Below the pieces are notes generated by a model. It had not been told where the DNA came from and searched no databases. It was given only the letters and a program-made list of their open reading frames with translations. Shown here piece by piece: positions 6,460 to 60,611 of a DNA stretch of 64,000 nucleotides (position 1 is the stretch's first letter; the number at the start of each line of letters is the position of its first letter). Source of the stretch: a virus; the UHGV virus genome UHGV-0038496. One strand, given 5' to 3'. The translations under genes and the position numbers were made by a program.

Positions 6460-7186
6460 TGAGTTTGCTCCTTACAACGGGTTCGTTGGCTTCAAATACT
6501 GCTAATGCCCAACCACGAGGTGTCAGGCTCCTGATCATTTTGGTACGAGGAGATTTTCCTCCCAGCTTGGTATGTTGGAAAGAATACCCATTTACATCAC
6601 AAATCTGCGGCACAGGTCGTTTCTCAGGGACAACAAAACCATTTCCGAACCATCCACAGGTTAGCTTCGGATAAGCATCCCTGGGCTTAATCAGGTCAGG
6701 GAACCACGGGTTCTGATCGTCTTCCGGCAGATAGCCACCATACTCATACGGATGGAACTTGTAGTCCGGTTTACGCCACATATTGGACATAACACCAACA
6801 GGGTTCTCCACATGCCACGGACAATTATACATGTTACCCAGCGTTTCTGCAATACGTGCATCTTTTACAGCATTGACCTGAATCAACGGATCTTTTTGTA
6901 GTTTTTTCTTGAAATGCGCTGCCCCAGATACCGCTAAGTGGGTACATGGTGGAAACGACAGGATGAAATCTGGTGCAGGATACATCCCCAGGGTTTCTTG
7001 TGGAAACCACGGGTCAATCCAGTAGTCGATGTACTGAATGTTAGGGTGTTCCTCTACTACCTCTGCATAGCTCCCGTGATCTGCCCCTTCTGCGTTGAAG
7101 CAGAAGCACAGATACCCTGCATCAGCCCAGGGTTTGACAGCAATATCAGAGCCATTGAATAATGCCCACACTACGCCTTGCTTCAT
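6452..7186 (-). CDS. hypothetical protein (about 244 aa)
   Basis: Track ORF 6452..7258 trimmed to the ATG at 7184-7186 (MKQGVVWALFNG...) because it has an RBS GGAGGG 9 nt upstream and the longer reading frame runs through a terminator hairpin. Confidence 0.5.
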   Translation of the reverse strand: MKQGVVWALFNGSDIAVKPWADAGYLCFCFNAEGADHGSYAEVVEEHPNIQYIDYWIDPWFPQETLGMYPAPDFILSFPPCTHLAVSGAAHFKKKLQKDPLIQVNAVKDARIAETLGNMYNCPWHVENPVGVMSNMWRKPDYKFHPYEYGGYLPEDDQNPWFPDLIKPRDAYPKLTCGWFGNGFVVPEKRPVPQICDVNGYSFQHTKLGGKSPRTKMIRSLTPRGWALAVFEANEPVVRSKLNG

Positions 7187-7212
7187 ACTATTTAGCCCTC
7201 CAAACACAAAAA

Positions 7213-7232
7213 CCCCGCCCTTTCGGGCAGGG
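7213..7232 (-). terminator. rho-independent terminator
   Basis: GC hairpin CCCCGCCC-TTTC-GGGCAGGG followed on the minus strand by TTTTTGTGTTTG; downstream of the 7239..7712 gene. Confidence 0.6.
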
Positions 7233-7238
7233 CTGTTA

Positions 7239-7712
7239 TTACTCGACGCGAATCCCAATTGTATACTCTGTTGAGACTAATGTCAAGTCTATGTTTAAAA
7301 TTTTATTCAGTTGTTCGAAATGTTCCTCTGTCAGATAAATCTTTTCAGAGGCTGTGCCAGTTAAATGATACTTCAGGAACCCAGGGTAATCGCTTATAGC
7401 GTAGCGTAGGCACCGCATTTCAGTTGGGTTGATGTAACCGTCATGCATCACCATCTGAGCTACGCCCAGTCCAGCATAGAAGCTCTGAGACTCTTTCAAG
7501 TAGTGCTCCCATACTGTTGTTTCTTTTTTAATCAATCCGAAGAACTTCTCTTCGACATAACGTTTGTTTTTAAGATATTTCAGAATCCTGTTACCAATCA
7601 CTGCAAGATCACGGAATTTAAGAGCAGCTTTTTGTAGCGTTTCCCGTGGTACTTCAATCAGGTCTTGTGCAGCAGGACCAATCTTCCAGAGATAGTCGCT
7701 TTCGTAAATCAT
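7239..7712 (-). CDS. hypothetical protein
   Basis: 157-aa ORF; overlaps neighbours in operon-like fashion. Confidence 0.5.
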   Translation of the reverse strand: MIYESDYLWKIGPAAQDLIEVPRETLQKAALKFRDLAVIGNRILKYLKNKRYVEEKFFGLIKKETTVWEHYLKESQSFYAGLGVAQMVMHDGYINPTEMRCLRYAISDYPGFLKYHLTGTASEKIYLTEEHFEQLNKILNIDLTLVSTEYTIGIRVE

Positions 7713-39700: not shown

Positions 39701-39729
39701 ATTTTACCAAAAAACAGCAAAATAGTCAA
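39701..39729 (-). promoter_or_regulatory. sigma70-like promoter (TTGACT, 17-nt spacer, TGG-TAAAAT)
   Basis: Read on the minus strand: TTGACT (rc of 39724-39729), 17 nt, TGG then TAAAAT (rc of 39701-39706). Confidence 0.5.
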
Positions 39730-39745
39730 TTACAGATACAAAAAA

Positions 39746-39761
39746 CCCCGCCGAAGCGGGG
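39746..39761 (-). terminator. rho-independent terminator
   Basis: CCCCGC-CGAA-GCGGGG hairpin followed on the minus strand by TTTTTTGTATCTG; downstream of the 39787..40233 gene. Confidence 0.7.
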
Positions 39762-39786
39762 TAATGTATCAGGAGAAACTTGAATT

Positions 39787-52909: not shown

Positions 52910-52938
52910 ATTATACCATAGAAATGGGGTTTTTACAA
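52910..52938 (-). promoter_or_regulatory. sigma70-like promoter with extended -10 (TTGTAA, 17-nt spacer, TGG-TATAAT)
   Basis: Read on the minus strand: TTGTAA (rc of 52933-52938), 17 nt, TGGTATAAT (TATAAT = rc of 52910-52915). Confidence 0.55.
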
Positions 52939-52954
52939 GTTACATAAAAGAAAA

Positions 52955-52971
52955 GGGGCCGCGAAGGCCCC
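52955..52971 (-). terminator. rho-independent terminator after the tape measure gene
   Basis: GGGGCC-GCGAA-GGCCCC hairpin followed on the minus strand by TTTTCTTTTATG. Confidence 0.7.
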
Positions 52972-52979
52972 TTGAAAGG

Positions 52980-54088
52980 TTAGTTAGTAGGACTTGCAAA
53001 CAGGTTAATATCTTTCCAATTTTCCCATTCAAATCTTGCATCCAGCATTTCTTCGAACTGAGCAGCGTCAAACTCGATTGTAATTTTACCCTCACCAACT
53101 TCCAGAGGAATTGGAGGAATTTCGAAGGATGGTAACGGATCCAAAGGTGTACTTGGAGTTGGATTAGCTCTGTAGGTAATCGGGTTAAGCATACGGTAAT
53201 CCAGGCCAAGGAAAGATGAAATGCCGTTAACACCATCGACAAGCCACTGCGGATGTTTGGTCACGTCAGTTTCCTGGTGGTAGTTTTGCATCCAATCATC
53301 CAACATACCAGCACCTTCGTACCCCATGTAGCCCAGAGCTAATGGTCCTTTCCATTTCCACAGTCCACCAAGTAACCGTGCAAACAATCCTTTCTTAGCC
53401 ATGGCTGCTGCACCACCCGCAGCTGCACCACCTGCGGCGGCACCACCGAGAGCACCTGCAACACCTCCGGCAGCTTTAATCATACCCAGGGTTGCGGCAA
53501 CAGCTTTGACGATTCTCAGCAATTTCCATACGGCGTTAACAACAACTAAGATGGAGAAAGCATAGCCTACCCATTTAGCTTTGCTGAATGTTTCATCAAC
53601 AGTGTCACTTGTATCTTTGACTTCTTTTTTCAGCAGACCAAAGTGGTCTTTGACTTGCAACCACCAGATACGGATACTGACAATCGTGTTGTTCAATTCA
53701 CCAACAATGTCGTTCAGACCCTGGATAAATCCAGATACAAACTCACCAGCCTGCATGATCATTGGGGTGAATGTTTCTCCTGTGCGGATCAGGGTGTAAT
53801 AAAACTCGGTGAGTTCATCTGACCATGTGGTGAACAGTTTTTGTTTAGTCAATTCGATGAAAGTTTTCAAACGGTTTTCAGCCAGAACGTTAGATTTCTG
53901 CATACGTTCATAACCAGCAGCTGACGCTTCGTTCATGTACTTAGCAACGTATTTCATCATTTTGGCTGTTTTGACCTGGCCTTTCTGCATCATGTCCATG
54001 AATTGTTCCATAGACAGCTCAGACAGGTTGAAAGCCTCTTTTGTTGCTTTAATGAACGGCTCGTAAGCACCTGGCATTGCTTCAGCTA
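52980..54088 (-). CDS. tail tape measure protein, exon 2
   Basis: Track ORF is TTG-initiated with an in-frame stop just upstream at 54108-54110; contains a Gly/Ala-rich hydrophobic segment (GGVAGALGGAAAGGAAAGGAAAMAKKG) typical of tape measure proteins; predicted 3' splice site after G at 54089. Confidence 0.6.
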
Positions 54089-54917
54089 CCAATGTCCAGA
54101 CAGTTCGCTACGCTGTCCCGGTGTGCTAAGACACCCGCCACACATTTCTGTGTGGAGCAGACTATATCTTCTCTGGATAACCAGAGCCAACCATTTCAGA
54201 GGCGCTTGCCTCTTACACCGCTACACTCATCACGGTTAGTCGTTGAGCACATAACTTATAAATCTTTCAGCAGTTTAGACCATGCTTTCTTAGTCTTGAT
54301 TCGAACAATTGCTGATCTGCAAGCACCAAATTCTTCCATCAAATCTGTTGTATTCTCAAACCGCCTGTTATAAATTTCGATAACCTCTTCTGCTGTGAGC
54401 TTATGATTGGCATTTGACTCACCAGAGGCATCATTCAGGCCATTTGCAAAAGCATGTTTCTGATTGCCAGATCGAGTAACATACTCCAGATTATCTTTAT
54501 GGTTGTTTGCTTTATTACCGTCCTTATGGTTAACTTCCATCCCAGGTTGTGGAGGTTCACCAAGGAAAGTAAGGGCAACTATTCTGTGAACAAGATACAA
54601 CACACATTTGCCGTTTACCCGAAAGTAAACGCGTTTGTAACCATTGTGTATTGTCTGCTCAGTCAACTGCTTCCGTGTGTTTCTTCTTGTAGAGAATATT
54701 GCACCGTCCTCTCTACAGAAGTACCCATCGTGACCAGGAACTGGTCGGATTTCTAAGTTACTTCGCTGCGGATTATCCATTGTTACATCCTCCAAACTTT
54801 TTACCATACCCCGAGTAGTTACTTCGGGCCATAAACATGTTACCACATTTATTTGGTATTTGGAAGGCTTTAGGAGCTTCCCGCAATTAGGTTGGTTTTA
54901 TAACAGCTAGTATGTCA
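54089..54917 (-). mobile_element. group I intron (about 0.83 kb) in the tape measure gene, carrying an HNH ORF
   Basis: Read on the minus strand: P-like AATTGCGGGAAGC (rc of 54876-54888), Q AATCCGCAGC (rc of 54765-54774), R-like TCAACGACTAA (rc of 54236-54246), S AAGATATAGTCT (rc of 54159-54170). Candidate P1: exon AACAGU pairs with intron GCUGUU, with U-G at the splice site. Intron 3' end GGACAUUGG is homologous to the polymerase intron 3' end GAACAUGUG. Boundaries predicted only. Confidence 0.65.
54256..54780 (-). CDS. intron-encoded HNH homing endonuclease (paralogue of the 1250..1756 product)
   Basis: HNH_3 motif VHRIVALTF...VNHKDGNKANNHKDNLEYVT...NQKHA; shared LTAEEVIEI block; start taken as ATG at 54778-54780 with RBS GGAGGA (track ORF extends upstream to 54846). 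Confidence 0.8.
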   Translation of the reverse strand: MDNPQRSNLEIRPVPGHDGYFCREDGAIFSTRRNTRKQLTEQTIHNGYKRVYFRVNGKCVLYLVHRIVALTFLGEPPQPGMEVNHKDGNKANNHKDNLEYVTRSGNQKHAFANGLNDASGESNANHKLTAEEVIEIYNRRFENTTDLMEEFGACRSAIVRIKTKKAWSKLLKDL

Positions 54918-56142
54918 ACTGTTGTTTTAGTTCCTCAGACATTACCTGTCCTTTACCAAGCATTTGCTGTATCGCCATAATACCACGCTGATATTTTACT
55001 TCATCAGCACCATATGACGCAGCATATTGCGAATAAGCAGAGAACAGATCACGGACTTCCTGCCCTGTCATTTGGTTTTTGGCGTTTACTGCCATTTGAG
55101 AGTAGCCTTGCAGACCTGATTTCAGGTCGAAGCCTAATCTCATAGCTTCACCTTGTACGAATGCAACTTCCGAGTTAGCTTTCGTAGGATCACCCATAAC
55201 GTTGGTAAGAGCAGCACTCGCACCTTCCATCATGTGACCGGATTTGTTAACACTGACAATTGCAGAGAATGCGGTGTACGCTTTAGTCAAATCCATGACT
55301 GTTGTTCTTAATTTATTAAAAGCGGTGCTCAGAGTCATGGTTCCAGCAGCAGCATTAGCAAACCCCTTCTGCATTGCAGCGATCTGGGCGTTGAAAGTTG
55401 ACTTACCTATCAACCCTTTTGCATATTGCTGTTCAACCTGACGGTAGCCACCTAACATATCCCTAAAATTAGCCCCATAACGAGCTGTCAGACGCGTTGA
55501 CATGTTGGTAAGGTGTGTTAGCCTATCCATACCCACATTATTGCGTTTGGGCGTTCCTGAGCTGCCATTTTGCTTGTGCCATCTGTTCATTGCAGCAGTC
55601 TGGGCACGAACAAGTGCTGGGTTGGAAGCTACACCACCCATGTTGGGGTTACCTGGGATATATCTGAAGGTATTTGCTCTGGACAGAGCACGGGGTGAGA
55701 CTGGTTTGTTGGAGAAGTAGGAACTACCTAAGCCACCACTTTTCTTAGCCAGTTTGGATTGTTCCTGATAGAATTTACGCATTCTCACCAATTCAGGATC
55801 TTTGGCAGTCATCTGACCGACAACCTGTTTCCTTCTGGCGTTCTCACGTTTTTCTATCGCAGATCGTACAGCAGCTTCACGTTTAGCCTGGGATACAGCT
55901 TCCTGATGCATACGGCGTTGCTGTTGCAACTGTTTATTCTGTACCCTCTGAACAATCTGACCAGTCTTCTCCATCGATGCTTGCCAGGCTTTCAGAGGAT
56001 TCCCCTTTCCCAAAGAATCGCCCAGCTTTGTAAACTCCCTGCCTAATCCTTTAATTCTTTCAATAGCTTTTTTATAGCTATTGTTATCGATCTCAAATGT
56101 AATTCGGTTTGTGGTTGTGGCAACCACTTTGTTACCAGCCAT
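54918..56142 (-). CDS. tail tape measure protein, exon 1
   Basis: Long alpha-helical, Q/A/K-rich N-terminal region; RBS AGGAGAG before ATG at 56142; the track ORF continues three codons into the intron to a TAG at 54907. Confidence 0.6.
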
Positions 56143-56200: not shown

Positions 56201-56446
56201 TTAACGTCTACGTTTCGCTTTTGCCTGGGCTATCCTGGCTTCTTGCTCTCTCTCAAACTCTTTGTTTTGAACACCGTCAAGGAACTCTTCTATGTCAAGA
56301 TACTCACACAACATCAAGAAGTAGTCCATGTCGGCGCTGTTGAGAGATTCATAGTTCTCACCACGAAACCCTTTCAACACTTTACACCACAGGAAATCGA
56401 ACCAGCTAAGTGAGCTATGCTTCCTTGCCCACTCGCTGGCCTGCAA
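56201..56446 (-). CDS. hypothetical protein (tail assembly region)
   Basis: 81-aa ORF between the chaperone-like gene and tape measure. Confidence 0.4.
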   Translation of the reverse strand: MQASEWARKHSSLSWFDFLWCKVLKGFRGENYESLNSADMDYFLMLCEYLDIEEFLDGVQNKEFEREQEARIAQAKAKRRR

Positions 56447-56457
56447 TACGACTTTGC

Positions 56458-56922
56458 TTATTCCTGAGTTTCCTGGTCCAGACTGTTGATCTGATGCGCC
56501 ATTTGCAATCCCTGCAACATCGCCATCAGGCCGTCTAAACCTTCTTGCGTGAAAAAAGATCCGTAGTTAACCTCCAGCACTTTACCAGCCAGTTTGAGCA
56601 TTGCAAACAGGTTGCCAGCGAAGAGTGCATCTATGTCTACTTTATCCACGCCATCAACGACAACATCTGCGAACAGGATATCGAACAGTTCGTCAATCGA
56701 TTTATCGTCAAGTTGTTCGAATAAGTACACCAGTGCGGTTGGTAACACTTCTGCGAGGTTTTTACCACCGTTCAACAATTCACCACCAATGGCTCCCATC
56801 GGCACTGCAATAATCCTGCCAATTTTAGGAAGGTTATGCATTGCCTGGCGTGGTCCCCAGTGATTTATAATGAAGTTGTGTCCGACTAAATCTATTTCTG
56901 TAGTAGGTCTGAAGTTTGGCAT
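56458..56922 (-). CDS. putative tail assembly chaperone
   Basis: 154-aa ORF in the position typical of tail chaperones, upstream of tape measure; RBS AAGGG. Confidence 0.35.
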   Translation of the reverse strand: MPNFRPTTEIDLVGHNFIINHWGPRQAMHNLPKIGRIIAVPMGAIGGELLNGGKNLAEVLPTALVYLFEQLDDKSIDELFDILFADVVVDGVDKVDIDALFAGNLFAMLKLAGKVLEVNYGSFFTQEGLDGLMAMLQGLQMAHQINSLDQETQE

Positions 56923-56969
56923 TTCTCGTTACCCTTAAAGTTAGTTGTCATGCGTTATCGCATAGATTT

Positions 56970-56998
56970 ATTATAGCATTGTACTCACTTTTTGTCAA
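56970..56998 (-). promoter_or_regulatory. consensus sigma70 promoter (TTGACA, 17-nt spacer, TGC-TATAAT) followed by a short inverted repeat
   Basis: Read on the minus strand: TTGACA (rc of 56993-56998), 17 nt, TATAAT (rc of 56970-56975) preceded by TGC; the hairpin ATGCG-ATAA-CGCAT lies at about +5 to +20. Confidence 0.6.
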
Positions 56999-57008
56999 TG
57001 CAAACAGA

Positions 57009-57026
57009 AAGCCTCCGAAGAGGCTT
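57009..57026 (-). terminator. rho-independent terminator overlapping the nuclease stop codon
   Basis: AAGCCTC-CGAA-GAGGCTT hairpin followed on the minus strand by TTTCTGTTTG. Confidence 0.55.
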
Positions 57027-58563
57027 ATAACCACTTAGCTCTCCATACCCATTTAATCTTACCACTATCCCACAACCGGATAGCCCCAACCAAATCTTCT
57101 ATCTCCCGCTCTGTACGAGGATCAATAGACTTATCTGGGTTGAAGTCTACATCAGATCTGCCAATCTCCTCCAGACGTTTAGGAATCAATCGACGTTGCC
57201 AGTGTGGTTTCGGACGCAAACCATTAGCAGGGTGGAATACTCTGTAGTCAGGTTTGCCATACGTTTCAGCAACAAATCCCAACACTTCATAAACCCCACC
57301 AGCGAAGTAGTCATTCATACTGAATGAACTAACCTCTTCTGGATTATTCTCCCTGATAAACGTTTTAAACAGTCTAGATGCCCCACCACGAACAGAACAG
57401 CTTGATGCAAATCTTGATAACTCCCATGTTGCCTTAGTCGTACCGTTAGCTCTGGCCTGACCTCTCGTAGTTTTACCGTAGCCGAAGCTCATGATTGCTA
57501 CAATTTCACCTTCTTTCGTTTTCAGAGCCAGATTGATAGGGTTAGGAGAATGGCCCTGCGGGTGGTAAGCGTCGTAAAACTCTTTGCACTCTATTGATTT
57601 TAGATGCACAACTTCACACTCCCTGGCATTTACTTTACGCTCACCATTACACCCCAAAGCATGAGCCAGCAACTGGCTGAACACTTTCTGGTTGTTATCC
57701 CAATCATAGTCCGTGATCTGGATCAGGCGAATACCTTTCTCTTTACAGGCTAACCACTTGTTGTAATGGTAGTCTTTAGACTTATGATTATCACCATGCC
57801 AGAAGACACCGTTAACTTCAATCGCCACACGTTTTGATGGGACAAAGATATCTAACTCTTTGCCATCATCCAAGATAGTGCGGTTAGACTGCTCCGCGTC
57901 TGGACAGATAGATTTTACAAAGTCAAAGACAGATCCTTCCACTTTAGAAGTCAATTTTGCACAATGCCTGCACCCATGACCTCTGTGAATGTGTTCTTTC
58001 ACAGGCTGTTGGAACTCTGATCCACATTTTGTGCATTCAATATTGAGAATGCCTTTCTTCCTTTCATCATAAAACATACTTTTGTAAACGTATTTATCTT
58101 TGTGGACCTCTTTAGCTTGTTCCACAACTTCTTCAAAAGAGTTTCTGCTTTTTCTACCACGAGTCATGTTAGCACAACGAGGGCAGCCCTGTCCTCTCAA
58201 ATGTTTGCTAGGTTTTTGTGAGAACACGCCGTGGTCAGGGCAAATAATGTTCACATTTGTCACTCTATCTTTATACACAACCTCAGAGTAATCGTAACGA
58301 TCACCATGTTTTTCTTTGGCCTTTTCGATAAATTCTTCCCTGTTTCCACGTTTACGCTCAAGGTAACATTCTTTGCACCCCTCCCCTTTTCTGTGAGCAT
58401 TCGCTTCTACCGAAAACACGCCATGTTTTTTGCAAATAATGTTAACTTTTTCTCTGCTACCTTTGTACTCAGTTTGACTGTAATCATACATTTCTTCAAA
58501 CTCAGGGTTTTCTTTGAAGACGGCTGTTAGCCATTCTTCTTTTGTATAACCTTTTCCAGCCAT
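57025..58563 (-). CDS. putative homing-type endonuclease: three tandem zinc-ribbon-like repeats plus Vsr-like PD-(D/E)xK nuclease domain
   Basis: Three roughly 45-aa repeats (Y.YS...Y......NIICP.HGVF......H..G.GC..C); nuclease-like block DIFVPSKRVAIEVNGVFWHGDNH resembling the FVDGCFWHGH core of Vsr (from memory); start set at ATG 58561-58563 (MAGKGYTKEEW...) with RBS AGGAG. Confidence 0.65.
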   Translation of the reverse strand: MAGKGYTKEEWLTAVFKENPEFEEMYDYSQTEYKGSREKVNIICKKHGVFSVEANAHRKGEGCKECYLERKRGNREEFIEKAKEKHGDRYDYSEVVYKDRVTNVNIICPDHGVFSQKPSKHLRGQGCPRCANMTRGRKSRNSFEEVVEQAKEVHKDKYVYKSMFYDERKKGILNIECTKCGSEFQQPVKEHIHRGHGCRHCAKLTSKVEGSVFDFVKSICPDAEQSNRTILDDGKELDIFVPSKRVAIEVNGVFWHGDNHKSKDYHYNKWLACKEKGIRLIQITDYDWDNNQKVFSQLLAHALGCNGERKVNARECEVVHLKSIECKEFYDAYHPQGHSPNPINLALKTKEGEIVAIMSFGYGKTTRGQARANGTTKATWELSRFASSCSVRGGASRLFKTFIRENNPEEVSSFSMNDYFAGGVYEVLGFVAETYGKPDYRVFHPANGLRPKPHWQRRLIPKRLEEIGRSDVDFNPDKSIDPRTEREIEDLVGAIRLWDSGKIKWVWRAKWL

Positions 58564-58596
58564 CGAAAAACTCCTAGTAGTTTTAAACACAGGGGA

Positions 58597-58626
58597 ACTA
58601 TACCACAAAACATTAGCTTTTGTCAA
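58597..58626 (-). promoter_or_regulatory. sigma70-like promoter with extended -10 (TTGACA, 18-nt spacer, TGG-TATAGT)
   Basis: Read on the minus strand: TTGACA (rc of 58621-58626), 18 nt, GTGGTATAGT (TATAGT = rc of 58597-58602); about 30 nt upstream of the nuclease RBS. Confidence 0.55.
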
Positions 58627-58642
58627 ACCCTATAAACAAGAA

Positions 58643-58662
58643 AGGCCACCCGAAGGTGGCCT
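58643..58662 (-). terminator. rho-independent terminator after the tail tube gene
   Basis: AGGCCACC-CGAA-GGTGGCCT hairpin followed on the minus strand by TTTCTTGTTTATAG. Confidence 0.7.
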
Positions 58663-58668
58663 GTAACA

Positions 58669-59142
58669 TTAAATGATACCAGTTAAACCTGCAAGTCCCA
58701 TCATTGCAGATTCAATGTTATCTTTGTTCAACCAGCAATCCAGTACGCCGATTTCCCAGTCCAGTTGTGCAACTTCTGTACCGTAGGTCAGGTCAGGTTG
58801 CTTCTGGATCCAACCGATTGTGGAAATACCAGGACCCTGGCTACCTTCCAGCAGAACAGGGAAGAATACAAGCCCTGTGATAGATGCTTGTTTCTGCCAG
58901 TCTGACAGGTAGGCGTTCCATGCTGCTGTGTTCTGGAGAGATACAGTCATTACACCAGATTGGTTACGGGATAATGCTGCACTCATTTCACCATCCACGC
59001 CTACATGCGGGTAGATGTTATCTTCGTTACGAGAGACAACGATTTTGGTGTCTGCCGCAAAACCTGATACACGCTGACCCATCAAATAAAGTTTTACTTT
59101 TTTCGGGTCATATGCATAGGGTGTTAAAATATCTGTGACCAT
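58669..59142 (-). CDS. putative tail tube protein
   Basis: 157-aa ORF immediately downstream of the sheath gene, with RBS AGGAGGG; gene order sheath-tube typical of contractile tails. Confidence 0.55.
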   Translation of the reverse strand: MVTDILTPYAYDPKKVKLYLMGQRVSGFAADTKIVVSRNEDNIYPHVGVDGEMSAALSRNQSGVMTVSLQNTAAWNAYLSDWQKQASITGLVFFPVLLEGSQGPGISTIGWIQKQPDLTYGTEVAQLDWEIGVLDCWLNKDNIESAMMGLAGLTGII

Positions 59143-59153
59143 TTACCCTCCTG

Positions 59154-60539
59154 TTACGCAGTCATTGCCTGGGCATTCGTGCTGGTTGTACCAGTTTTAT
59201 CCAGCAATACATTGATGCGGATTTTCACGAAGTGCAGAGCATTGTTGTAAACCATTTCTACTTTAACACCTTCCAGGGTACGAGCAGCCAGCTGGTTAGC
59301 AGGGATGGTAGCACGTTTTGGAACAGTGATAATCGGATCGTAGAATACGCTGTTTTCTTCATCATACCCAGTCAGGATAGCACCGTTACGGATACCAACG
59401 TTGATCGGGTCGTTCATCAGAACAGATTTAATAACAGGCAGGTCGTCATCAGACATTTTCATGCTCATGCCCATGTTGGATCTGCGATGCATGTAGCCAA
59501 ACATAGATTCTTCGGAACGGAATTTGATCCAGTGGGAGAATCTGATTACGTCAGCATATTGGCCTGAAGCGCATTTACCTTCCCAGAAGCAACCAACACC
59601 GTTGATCATTCTGTAGAAGTTCAGGTTGTTGTCCCACAATGCCATTCTCTGACCGACACCCATGTTCGGAGGAGTGATACCTGGCATTTTTTTCAGGTGT
59701 AAGCTGTCACCATAAGACGGGTCATTGGATGCCATTGCACCGATGATACCACCTTCTGGGAAGTCCATGTTAGCACGAGGATCCCACATACCTAAAGTAT
59801 CAAGCTGGAGCTGTTTGAGAGCATAACCAATACCACTTTCTACACCCATTGCATCTTGATCAGCAGTGGAGTAAACGTGAAGTTTGTAGTTAGCTTGTGC
59901 CCATTTTGCAAGAGCTGTGATAGCAGTAACGCTGTGGTCTTCGGAGCACAGGAAATACCAGTTACTGTTTTCATCATTAATGTCATCAACGACTGTCTGA
60001 GGAGTTTCACTGGATTTATTTTCAATTTTGAAATCGCCAGCACCGTAGCCAACGGTAGCACCTTTGATGGTAACTTTACCGGAGTTAGCTTTAGCAGTTA
60101 CACTGGCACCTGACAAGATTTCATCACCAGTAATAGCTGTAGCCAAAGCCTCAGCGATTGTGGAAGCAGCAGTACCACCACCAACTGGAATGACTATGGC
60201 GCGATCATAATTAGGGATTGCTACGTTTACGATAACTTGGGATTCAGCTGGGAATACGCCACCAACAAAGTCAACAACAGTTTCTGTTGCAGCCTGACGA
60301 CCGATGACGATGTATTGCGGCGGGAACTCACCACCGAAAGCGTTAGAAGCGAAGGTGTGAGCAGCACTGCCTGGTGCAAAACCATCGTCAACTAACTGAT
60401 CGAGTTCAGCGTAAACGCGAGCGCGTTCAGTAAAATTATTGTGGATGGCAATAAACAAGGGAGTTTCGAAGCCTACTGTGTCAATCGGCTGTGTACCCAG
60501 GTTTACTTGCACATCGACAACTTTATCATTGTAAGGCAT
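59154..60539 (-). CDS. putative tail sheath protein
   Basis: About 461 aa (track ORF is GTG-initiated at 60566; ATG at 60537-60539 has RBS AAGAGGAAA); size, composition and position upstream of the tube gene. Confidence 0.6.
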   Translation of the reverse strand: MPYNDKVVDVQVNLGTQPIDTVGFETPLFIAIHNNFTERARVYAELDQLVDDGFAPGSAAHTFASNAFGGEFPPQYIVIGRQAATETVVDFVGGVFPAESQVIVNVAIPNYDRAIVIPVGGGTAASTIAEALATAITGDEILSGASVTAKANSGKVTIKGATVGYGAGDFKIENKSSETPQTVVDDINDENSNWYFLCSEDHSVTAITALAKWAQANYKLHVYSTADQDAMGVESGIGYALKQLQLDTLGMWDPRANMDFPEGGIIGAMASNDPSYGDSLHLKKMPGITPPNMGVGQRMALWDNNLNFYRMINGVGCFWEGKCASGQYADVIRFSHWIKFRSEESMFGYMHRRSNMGMSMKMSDDDLPVIKSVLMNDPINVGIRNGAILTGYDEENSVFYDPIITVPKRATIPANQLAARTLEGVKVEMVYNNALHFVKIRINVLLDKTGTTSTNAQAMTA

Positions 60540-60611
60540 TTGTTTCCTCTTCAATATCTTGTGCACAGGATATTAACAAGCAGCATAATCATTACGCTGC
60601 ATGGAGAACGA

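Follow-up and report, generated by a model that had tools for sequence, protein, structure and literature searches.

The closest described counterpart of the promoter considered here is P051 of phage rV5 (TTGACAATGCACCATAATCATGGTAAAAT), which Table S4 places upstream of the chaperone gene, with terminator t052 lying between it and the tube gene (Kropinski et al. 2013, Virol J 10:76). A total of 33 σ70-like promoters were predicted in rV5, 11 of them with an extended −10, and the motif TggTAaAAtA was found upstream of late genes, several of which have terminators immediately upstream of it (Kropinski et al. 2013, Virol J 10:76). P051 is one of two rV5 promoters that appear both on the σ70 consensus list and on the "late" TggTAaAAtA list (Kropinski et al. 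2013). P051 and its late timing are predictions in rV5 (Kropinski et al. 2013, Virol J 10:76), as are the activity and the timing of the promoter described below.

The DNA analyzed in this study, referred to here as the window, is a stretch of 64,000 nucleotides of viral sequence, and all coordinates are positions in it unless another genome is named. A megablast search of the phage collection found no near-identical phage DNA. The closest isolates belong to Vequintavirus (amino acid identity approximately 71% in the tail sheath and 68% in the tail assembly chaperone, TAC), and Septuagintavirus (A73) is far more distant, at 34%. The phage, an rV5-like and Vequintavirinae-related myovirus, is a relative of Vequintavirus that has not been isolated. 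Its clade adjoins Vequintavirus, is without an isolate in the August 2025 phage collection, and is known only from eight metagenomic contigs (L003–L006 and L013–L016), four of them from IMG sample 3300045988 and the other four from ENA metagenome assemblies. The metagenome scan revealed no clade of intermediate distance.

The features of the locus, in the order in which they would be transcribed, are as follows:

59154–60566, minus strand: tail sheath gene (phrog_205)
58669–59142, minus strand: tail tube gene (phrog_280)
58643–58662, minus strand: intrinsic terminator directly after the tail tube gene, with an 8-bp stem containing 6 GC pairs, a UUCG loop, and a T-tract (−16.1 kcal/mol, z −3.9)
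58597–58626, minus strand: promoter of the homing-endonuclease-like gene, TTGACA-18-TATAGT, with TGg as extended −10
57025–58563, minus strand: freestanding homing-endonuclease-like gene (HEG), matching phrog_559 at 2.9e-103 and phrog_3339 "homing endonuclease" at 1.1e-70, with a treble-clef zinc-finger domain
57009–57026, minus strand: terminator-like hairpin at the 3′ end of the HEG, AAGCCUC-UUCG-GAGGCUU and then UUUCUGUUU (−10.5 kcal/mol)
56970–56998, minus strand: the whole σ70-type promoter, a 12/12 match and the orthologue of rV5 P051
56998–56993, minus strand: −35 hexamer TTGACA, read from the sequence
56978–56976, minus strand: TGc, the extended −10, forming the last bases of the 17-nt spacer between the −35 and −10
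56975–56970, minus strand: −10 hexamer TATAAT, read from the sequence
between the −10 and the inverted repeat, minus strand: 6-nt AT-rich discriminator aaatct
56950–56963, minus strand: inverted repeat ATGCG-ATAA-CGCAT, 5 bp with a 4-nt loop, the predicted first 14 nt of the transcript
56932–56936, minus strand: ribosome-binding site AAGGG, 9 nt before the TAC ATG, read from the sequence
56458–56922, minus strand: TAC gene, the first gene behind the promoter, a 154-aa ORF matching phrog_3840 at 3e-55 and PF21822 Phage_TAC_15 at 6e-24
56201–56446, minus strand: small ORF of 81 aa in the −1 frame relative to TAC (phrog_10409), with the tape measure gene next

The initial annotation had described a perfect consensus promoter followed by a short inverted repeat, and both were found where it had placed them: TTGACA, 17 nt ending in TGc, and TATAAT at 56998–56970, and the repeat at 56963–56950, all on the minus strand. 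The two hexamers agree with the σ70 consensus at 12 of 12 positions, the 17-nt spacer falls within the 17 ± 1 bp of σ70 promoters, and TGn stands directly before the −10. The promoter is intergenic and lies 47 nt ahead of the TAC ATG at 56922. From standard spacing, transcription is predicted to start at A56963, the seventh base after the −10 and a purine preceded by T. Because the usual 6-nt discriminator puts the start at this base, the inverted repeat would span approximately +1 to +14, and not +5 to +20 as had been proposed. The leader between the repeat and AAGGG was unstructured, and folding predicted that the AAGGG ribosome-binding site lies outside the 5′ hairpin and is unpaired with it.

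The promoter had also been placed at the resumption of the structural genes behind a nuclease cassette. The gene order of tube, terminator, HEG, terminator, promoter, and TAC bears this out. The terminator at 58643–58662 is the counterpart of rV5 terminator t052. The HEG is an ORF of 512–533 aa with its stop codon at 57025–57027; its probable start is the ATG at 58563 (MAGKGY...), which has an AGGAG ribosome-binding site before it. The hairpin at 57009–57026 overlaps the HEG stop codon and reaches just past it.

Downstream of the promoter, the −1 frame relative to TAC is open from at least 56539 to 56201 and crosses the last ~25 TAC codons. The ORF at 56201–56446 is likely a frameshift extension of the chaperone, fitting the conserved G/GT-like chaperone frameshift; no obvious canonical slippery heptamer was found for it between 56201 and 56539. 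The chaperone gene also contains a mosaic patch at 56612–56882 (codons ~14–103, +40 to +310), which is 60–80% identical to eight relatives and is bordered on both sides by sequence that is 93–100% identical to them. Such a patch points to recombination with a lineage that is less closely related.

A group I intron of ~829 nt (54089–54917, minus strand) divides the tape measure gene into exons at 54918–56142 and 52980–54088, and an HNH endonuclease ORF (54256–54846) lies inside the intron. Rfam Intron_gpI matches the intron over the full model with E=6e-4, which is below the gathering score. The relative L015 has an uninterrupted tape measure gene (...KQQL|AEAMPG), and this intron-less allele places the splice junctions after T54918 and after G54089. 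The junctions have the U at −1 and the terminal G expected for group I introns. L004 also carries the intron.

The same promoter was read in the rV5-like phages HeinrichReichert and JEP1, and it was kept at the same position in the eight relatives of the window. Alignment of the window promoter with the rV5-type promoter revealed an invariant ATTGACAA and ATG.TA.AATA; at the positions of the late motif TggTAaAAtA the window has TGcTAtAAtA. Across two genera, TTGACA-17-TA(T/A)AAT with TGn was kept in four upstream contexts:

Context 1, no HEG: L001 (HeinrichReichert, no nuclease gene)
Context 2, HEG plus a spacer, inserted between the terminator and the promoter: JEP1
Context 3, HEG plus its own terminator: the window, L003, L006, L015, and L016
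Context 4, HEG coding 3′ end overlapping the −35 and the spacer: L004, L005, L013, and L014

Its retention in all four contexts is good comparative evidence for selection on the promoter and shows that the cassette is not its source. The possibility that the nuclease cassette had brought the promoter with it was rejected, since HEG-free rV5-like genomes carry the orthologous promoter at the same place. The promoter is ancestral to the window clade and Vequintavirus and predates the HEG insertion.

The intergenic site between the tube and chaperone genes is a homing endonuclease hotspot, which spans 57025–58626 in the window, 2297–3919 in L002, and 1293–2945 in L004. Three divergent but homologous zinc-finger nuclease genes were found at this site, the window HEG having 34% amino acid identity with that of JEP1 and 35% with that of L004. 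The site is occupied in the window, JEP1, L003–L006, and L013–L016 and empty in L001 and L007–L012, so that a nuclease-family ORF is present or absent at one intergenic site among relatives, as in a freestanding HEG cassette. Vequintavirus genomes other than JEP1 were empty at this site. The HEG-free rV5-like allele still has, after the terminator, the TTGACA that serves elsewhere as the −35 of the HEG promoter. At 2925–2950 of L004, and also in L005, L013, and L014, the last HEG codons (…EWIDKHGK and the stop codon) supply the −35 of the chaperone promoter together with part of its spacer.

Seunavirus, Avunavirus, and Klebsiella phage K54_rec4 (L009) are without a promoter between the tube and chaperone genes. 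Between these genes L007–L012 have a conserved nested hairpin of ~75 nt (CGTGTGCCACATGGAxGTGGC...ACACG), which may be an RNA processing or stability element. Because Seunavirus, Avunavirus, and K54_rec4 have the hairpin only, the terminator-promoter couple is specific to the rV5 lineage and the window clade.

The number of promoter-like sites in the window was compared with that in 200 first-order Markov simulations. Perfect 12/12 sites occurred five times with 0.05 expected, and sites matching at least 11 of the 12 consensus positions occurred 16 times with 1.6 expected. The promoter class is far beyond chance, about tenfold or more over expectation. Six intergenic promoter-like sites are located in the structural module (62862, 62122, 58626, 56998, 52938, and 39729); all have TGn, and their −35 varies. 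Promoter-like sites matching at least 11/12 positions in the first ~24 kb, on both strands, have a perfect −35 and are without TGn. This division between a TGn group in the structural module and a perfect −35 group in the first ~24 kb suggests two promoter classes, as in rV5. Four of the six structural-module promoters directly follow an intrinsic terminator (terminator/promoter at 58662/58626, 57026/56998, 52973/52938, and 39762/39729), and the resulting terminator-promoter couples punctuate the module on the minus strand (39729–39762, 52938–52973, 56998–57026, and 58626–58662). The promoter at 56998 is a further member of a class already predicted, that of rV5 P051 and the late-motif promoters.

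A different arrangement was observed at 7134–7286. A minus-strand promoter, TTGACA-17-TACAAT, at 7286 is followed ~25 nt on by a strong, bidirectional-looking terminator (7211–7234) and then by a ribosome-binding site and an ATG, and a plus-strand promoter at 7134 faces it. This arrangement may produce a short transcript or act as an attenuator.

We hold with moderate confidence a reading, drawn from sequence, in which the locus is an internal σ70 extended −10 promoter of the TAC/tape-measure unit and the inverted repeat would be not an operator but a 5′-terminal mRNA hairpin, whose effect, if any, would be a modest stabilization. Host RNA polymerase with σ70 would recognize the −35, the 17-bp spacer, TGn, and the −10. 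Transcription of the sheath and tube genes, which are highly expressed, would end at the terminator, and transcription would end again after the HEG; the promoter, which completes a terminator-promoter couple, would start it anew for the chaperone, its frameshift extension, and the tape measure gene. The mRNA would then begin with the 14 nt of the inverted repeat (pppAUGCGAUAACGCAU), which, if they fold in vivo as predicted, would form a small 5′-terminal stem-loop with no unpaired 5′ nucleotides. Such a stem-loop would be expected to hinder RppH and 5′-end-dependent RNase E and, if it had any effect, to lengthen the life of the mRNA modestly.

In E. coli, 5′-terminal base pairing protects mRNAs from RppH and from 5′-end-dependent RNase E. 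Protection by 5′-terminal pairing in E. coli was reportedly found by Emory, Bouvet, and Belasco in 1992, by Bouvet and Belasco in 1992, by Arnold and coworkers in 1998, and by Bricker and Belasco in 1999. Review PMC3997798 lists work of Emory, Bouvet, Arnold, Bricker, and Belasco as its refs 92–95.

The geometry of the repeat, which starts at the predicted +1, makes a 5′-terminal protective hairpin plausible. Its folding energy was −4.0 kcal/mol alone (z −3.5) and −4.7 kcal/mol in context. A flanking U·G pair extends the stem to 6 bp and −6.0 kcal/mol and needs one base upstream of the predicted start. The hairpin was the only structure predicted in the leader, and the z for the whole leader was only −0.5 to −1.4.

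A rival explanation, which we consider tentative but serious, is that the promoter is real and the repeat arose by chance and has no function in either DNA or RNA. Perfect inverted repeats of at least 5 bp with a loop of 3–8 nt were present in 7.2% of all 25-nt windows in the sequence, and 6.6% of random 25-mers folded as well as the 25-mer containing the repeat. Because there are 16–22 strong promoter-like sites and the frequency is ~7%, approximately one coincidence of a promoter and an inverted repeat is expected in the window. The repeat is thus no more than chance would give and is statistically unremarkable. Other short inverted repeats in the same 180 nt are broken in relatives, which indicates that such repeats arise freely here. 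One of these, a perfect 9-nt inverted repeat (TAAATCTAT / ATAGATTTA) at 56887–56895/56962–56970, links the discriminator and start region to chaperone codons 10–12; it is broken in type-B relatives, is probably a chance occurrence, and was rejected as an element. A nearby repeat pair, GCATTG/CAATGC, was rejected in the same way, being broken in type-B relatives.

In a search for further copies, as the initial annotation had proposed, the repeat proved to be single-copy in the 64-kb window and to occur once per genome in four related contigs. When the 64-kb window was searched for the arms with any loop and up to one mismatch, one match was found with 1.1 expected; with up to two mismatches in the arms, 20 were found with 17.9 expected. 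A search of the same 64 kb for the full 14-mer with up to three mismatches gave 5 matches with 4.3 expected, and none of these were at promoters. Comparable start hairpins were not found at the other structural-module promoters of the window. The IMG/VR scan for the 16-mer CTATGCGATAACGCAT located a single site per contig in four related contigs of 118–141 kb, always at the chaperone promoter, and nine further sites in unrelated contexts; chance matches to the 14-mer in IMG/VR were found among the matches listed. A search of Rfam gave no family at or near threshold over the inverted-repeat region or the window.

The sequence TCTATGCGATAACGCAT was unchanged in eight relatives, four IMG/VR contigs and four metagenome contigs. 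Because these genomes are 93–100% identical outside the mosaic patch, the invariance of the repeat carries little weight, and no signal of covariation in the stem could be read from the eight nearly identical leaders. The homologous leader of the rV5 genus (AUAUGGUGCACAACAUGAC) has only a 4-bp pairing of −1.0 kcal/mol. Because this orthologous leader pairs only weakly, the 5′ hairpin is not a conserved requirement of the promoter.

Three points do not fit readily with a chance origin. The start of the repeat exactly at the predicted +1 would be an extra coincidence. The leader haplotype shared by L004 and L013 has seven differences between the −10 and the ATG and none in the 17 nt spanning the repeat (chance p ~0.08), so that the repeat was left untouched in a leader that changed elsewhere. 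A 5′-terminal stem of −4.7 kcal/mol would, moreover, form regardless of selection and should affect 5′-end-dependent decay. We regard an unselected coincidence and a stabilizing hairpin as about equally likely.

The suggestion in the initial annotation that the repeat is an operator for a phage or host regulator fared worse, and we consider it improbable. By this account, a dimeric phage or host protein bound to the 14-bp near-palindrome at +1 to +14 would block or time the promoter. In the duplex ATGCGATAACGCAT, 6 of the 7 pair positions are symmetric; the duplex overlaps the start site, which is the classic position for a repressor, and a full-consensus promoter before late structural genes might need early restraint. 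The rV5 orthologue has a different inverted repeat, TGCACCAT...ATGGTGCA, flanking its −10; however, substitutions in the natural variants L019 and L020 break that repeat, and it was rejected as a parallel operator. Against an operator in the window are the absence of any copy or near-copy at the other promoters in the 64 kb, the occurrence of the exact 16-mer once in each of the four related genomes of 118–141 kb, and the loss of the site in the rV5 orthologue, so that the two genera do not share it. The analysis identified no candidate binding protein.

In a broader form of this idea, the 14-nt repeat would be a dedicated control element of the chaperone/tape-measure unit that evolved in the clade after colonization by the HEG, acting either as an operator, possibly for the neighboring zinc-finger endonuclease, or as a 5′ cap-like hairpin setting a low, long-lived dose relative to the sheath and tube. 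We think this equally doubtful. Perfect-consensus promoters are escape-limited, and two-codon minigenes, such as lambda bar, are known. A role of the first transcript bases in translation or initiation, either as a leaderless two-codon mini-ORF (the predicted 5′ end reads AUG-CGA-UAA) or as an escape-tuning initial sequence, is nevertheless wholly speculative and very improbable, with the AUG buried in the stem, conservation only in near-identical relatives, and the first 20 nt free of any −10-like pause element. A σ-dependent pause element or a lambda-Q-like arrangement was rejected because no −10-like hexamer is present in those 20 nt.

The promoter marks a transcription unit boundary for the tail chaperone and tape measure genes in an unisolated rV5-like clade. 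Whatever occupies the upstream site, selection has maintained the promoter, and in one lineage its −35 is encoded within the 3′ end of the invading HEG. Its full consensus and defined leader could make it useful as a strong portable promoter part. Should the +1 hairpin prove to stabilize the mRNA, it would represent a natural 5′ stabilizer of compact size and a small example of a well-known mechanism. To a phage specialist nothing here is surprising; the finding is an ordinary one and matters little beyond annotation.

The locus can be compared with four known systems. With start-site operators, such as the I-TevI autorepression site and the 14-bp lambdoid operators, the repeat shares a dyad, a 14-bp near-palindrome overlapping +1. 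It differs from them in being single-copy, in having neither a cognate protein nor conservation between genera, and in being unlinked to the nuclease's own promoter. Like the leader stabilizers of E. coli ompA and papA, reportedly described by Emory, Bouvet, and Belasco in 1992, the predicted hairpin would stand at the very tip of the transcript, and a start at A56963 would leave no 5′ nucleotide unpaired. In size and strength it falls well short of these stabilizers (5–6 bp, −4 to −4.7 kcal/mol), its start is a predicted one, and it is neither conserved in the sister genus nor accompanied by covariation.

In the T-even phages, freestanding seg and mob homing endonuclease cassettes lie between conserved genes and have their own promoters. 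The HEG resembles them in that a nuclease gene with its own promoter and terminator occupies an intergenic site that is empty in relatives, and in that differing homologous nucleases occupy one hotspot across lineages. Unlike the seg and mob nucleases, the family found here consists of treble-clef zinc-finger proteins (phrog_559/3339) for which homing is only predicted, and the downstream promoter is older than the insertion and not part of the cassette.

The closest resemblance is to rV5 P051. The two promoters differ in the −10, which is TATAAT here and TAAAAT in rV5, and in the extended −10, which is TGc here and TGg in rV5. An HEG with its own terminator stands between the tube terminator and the promoter here, and the leader has a predicted +1 hairpin, whereas the rV5 leader is without a comparable one (−1.0 kcal/mol). 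In both phages, the promoter follows the tail tube terminator and lies directly upstream of the TAC gene, and in both it is composed of ATTGACAA, a 17-nt spacer ending in ATGn, and then TA(T/A)AATA.
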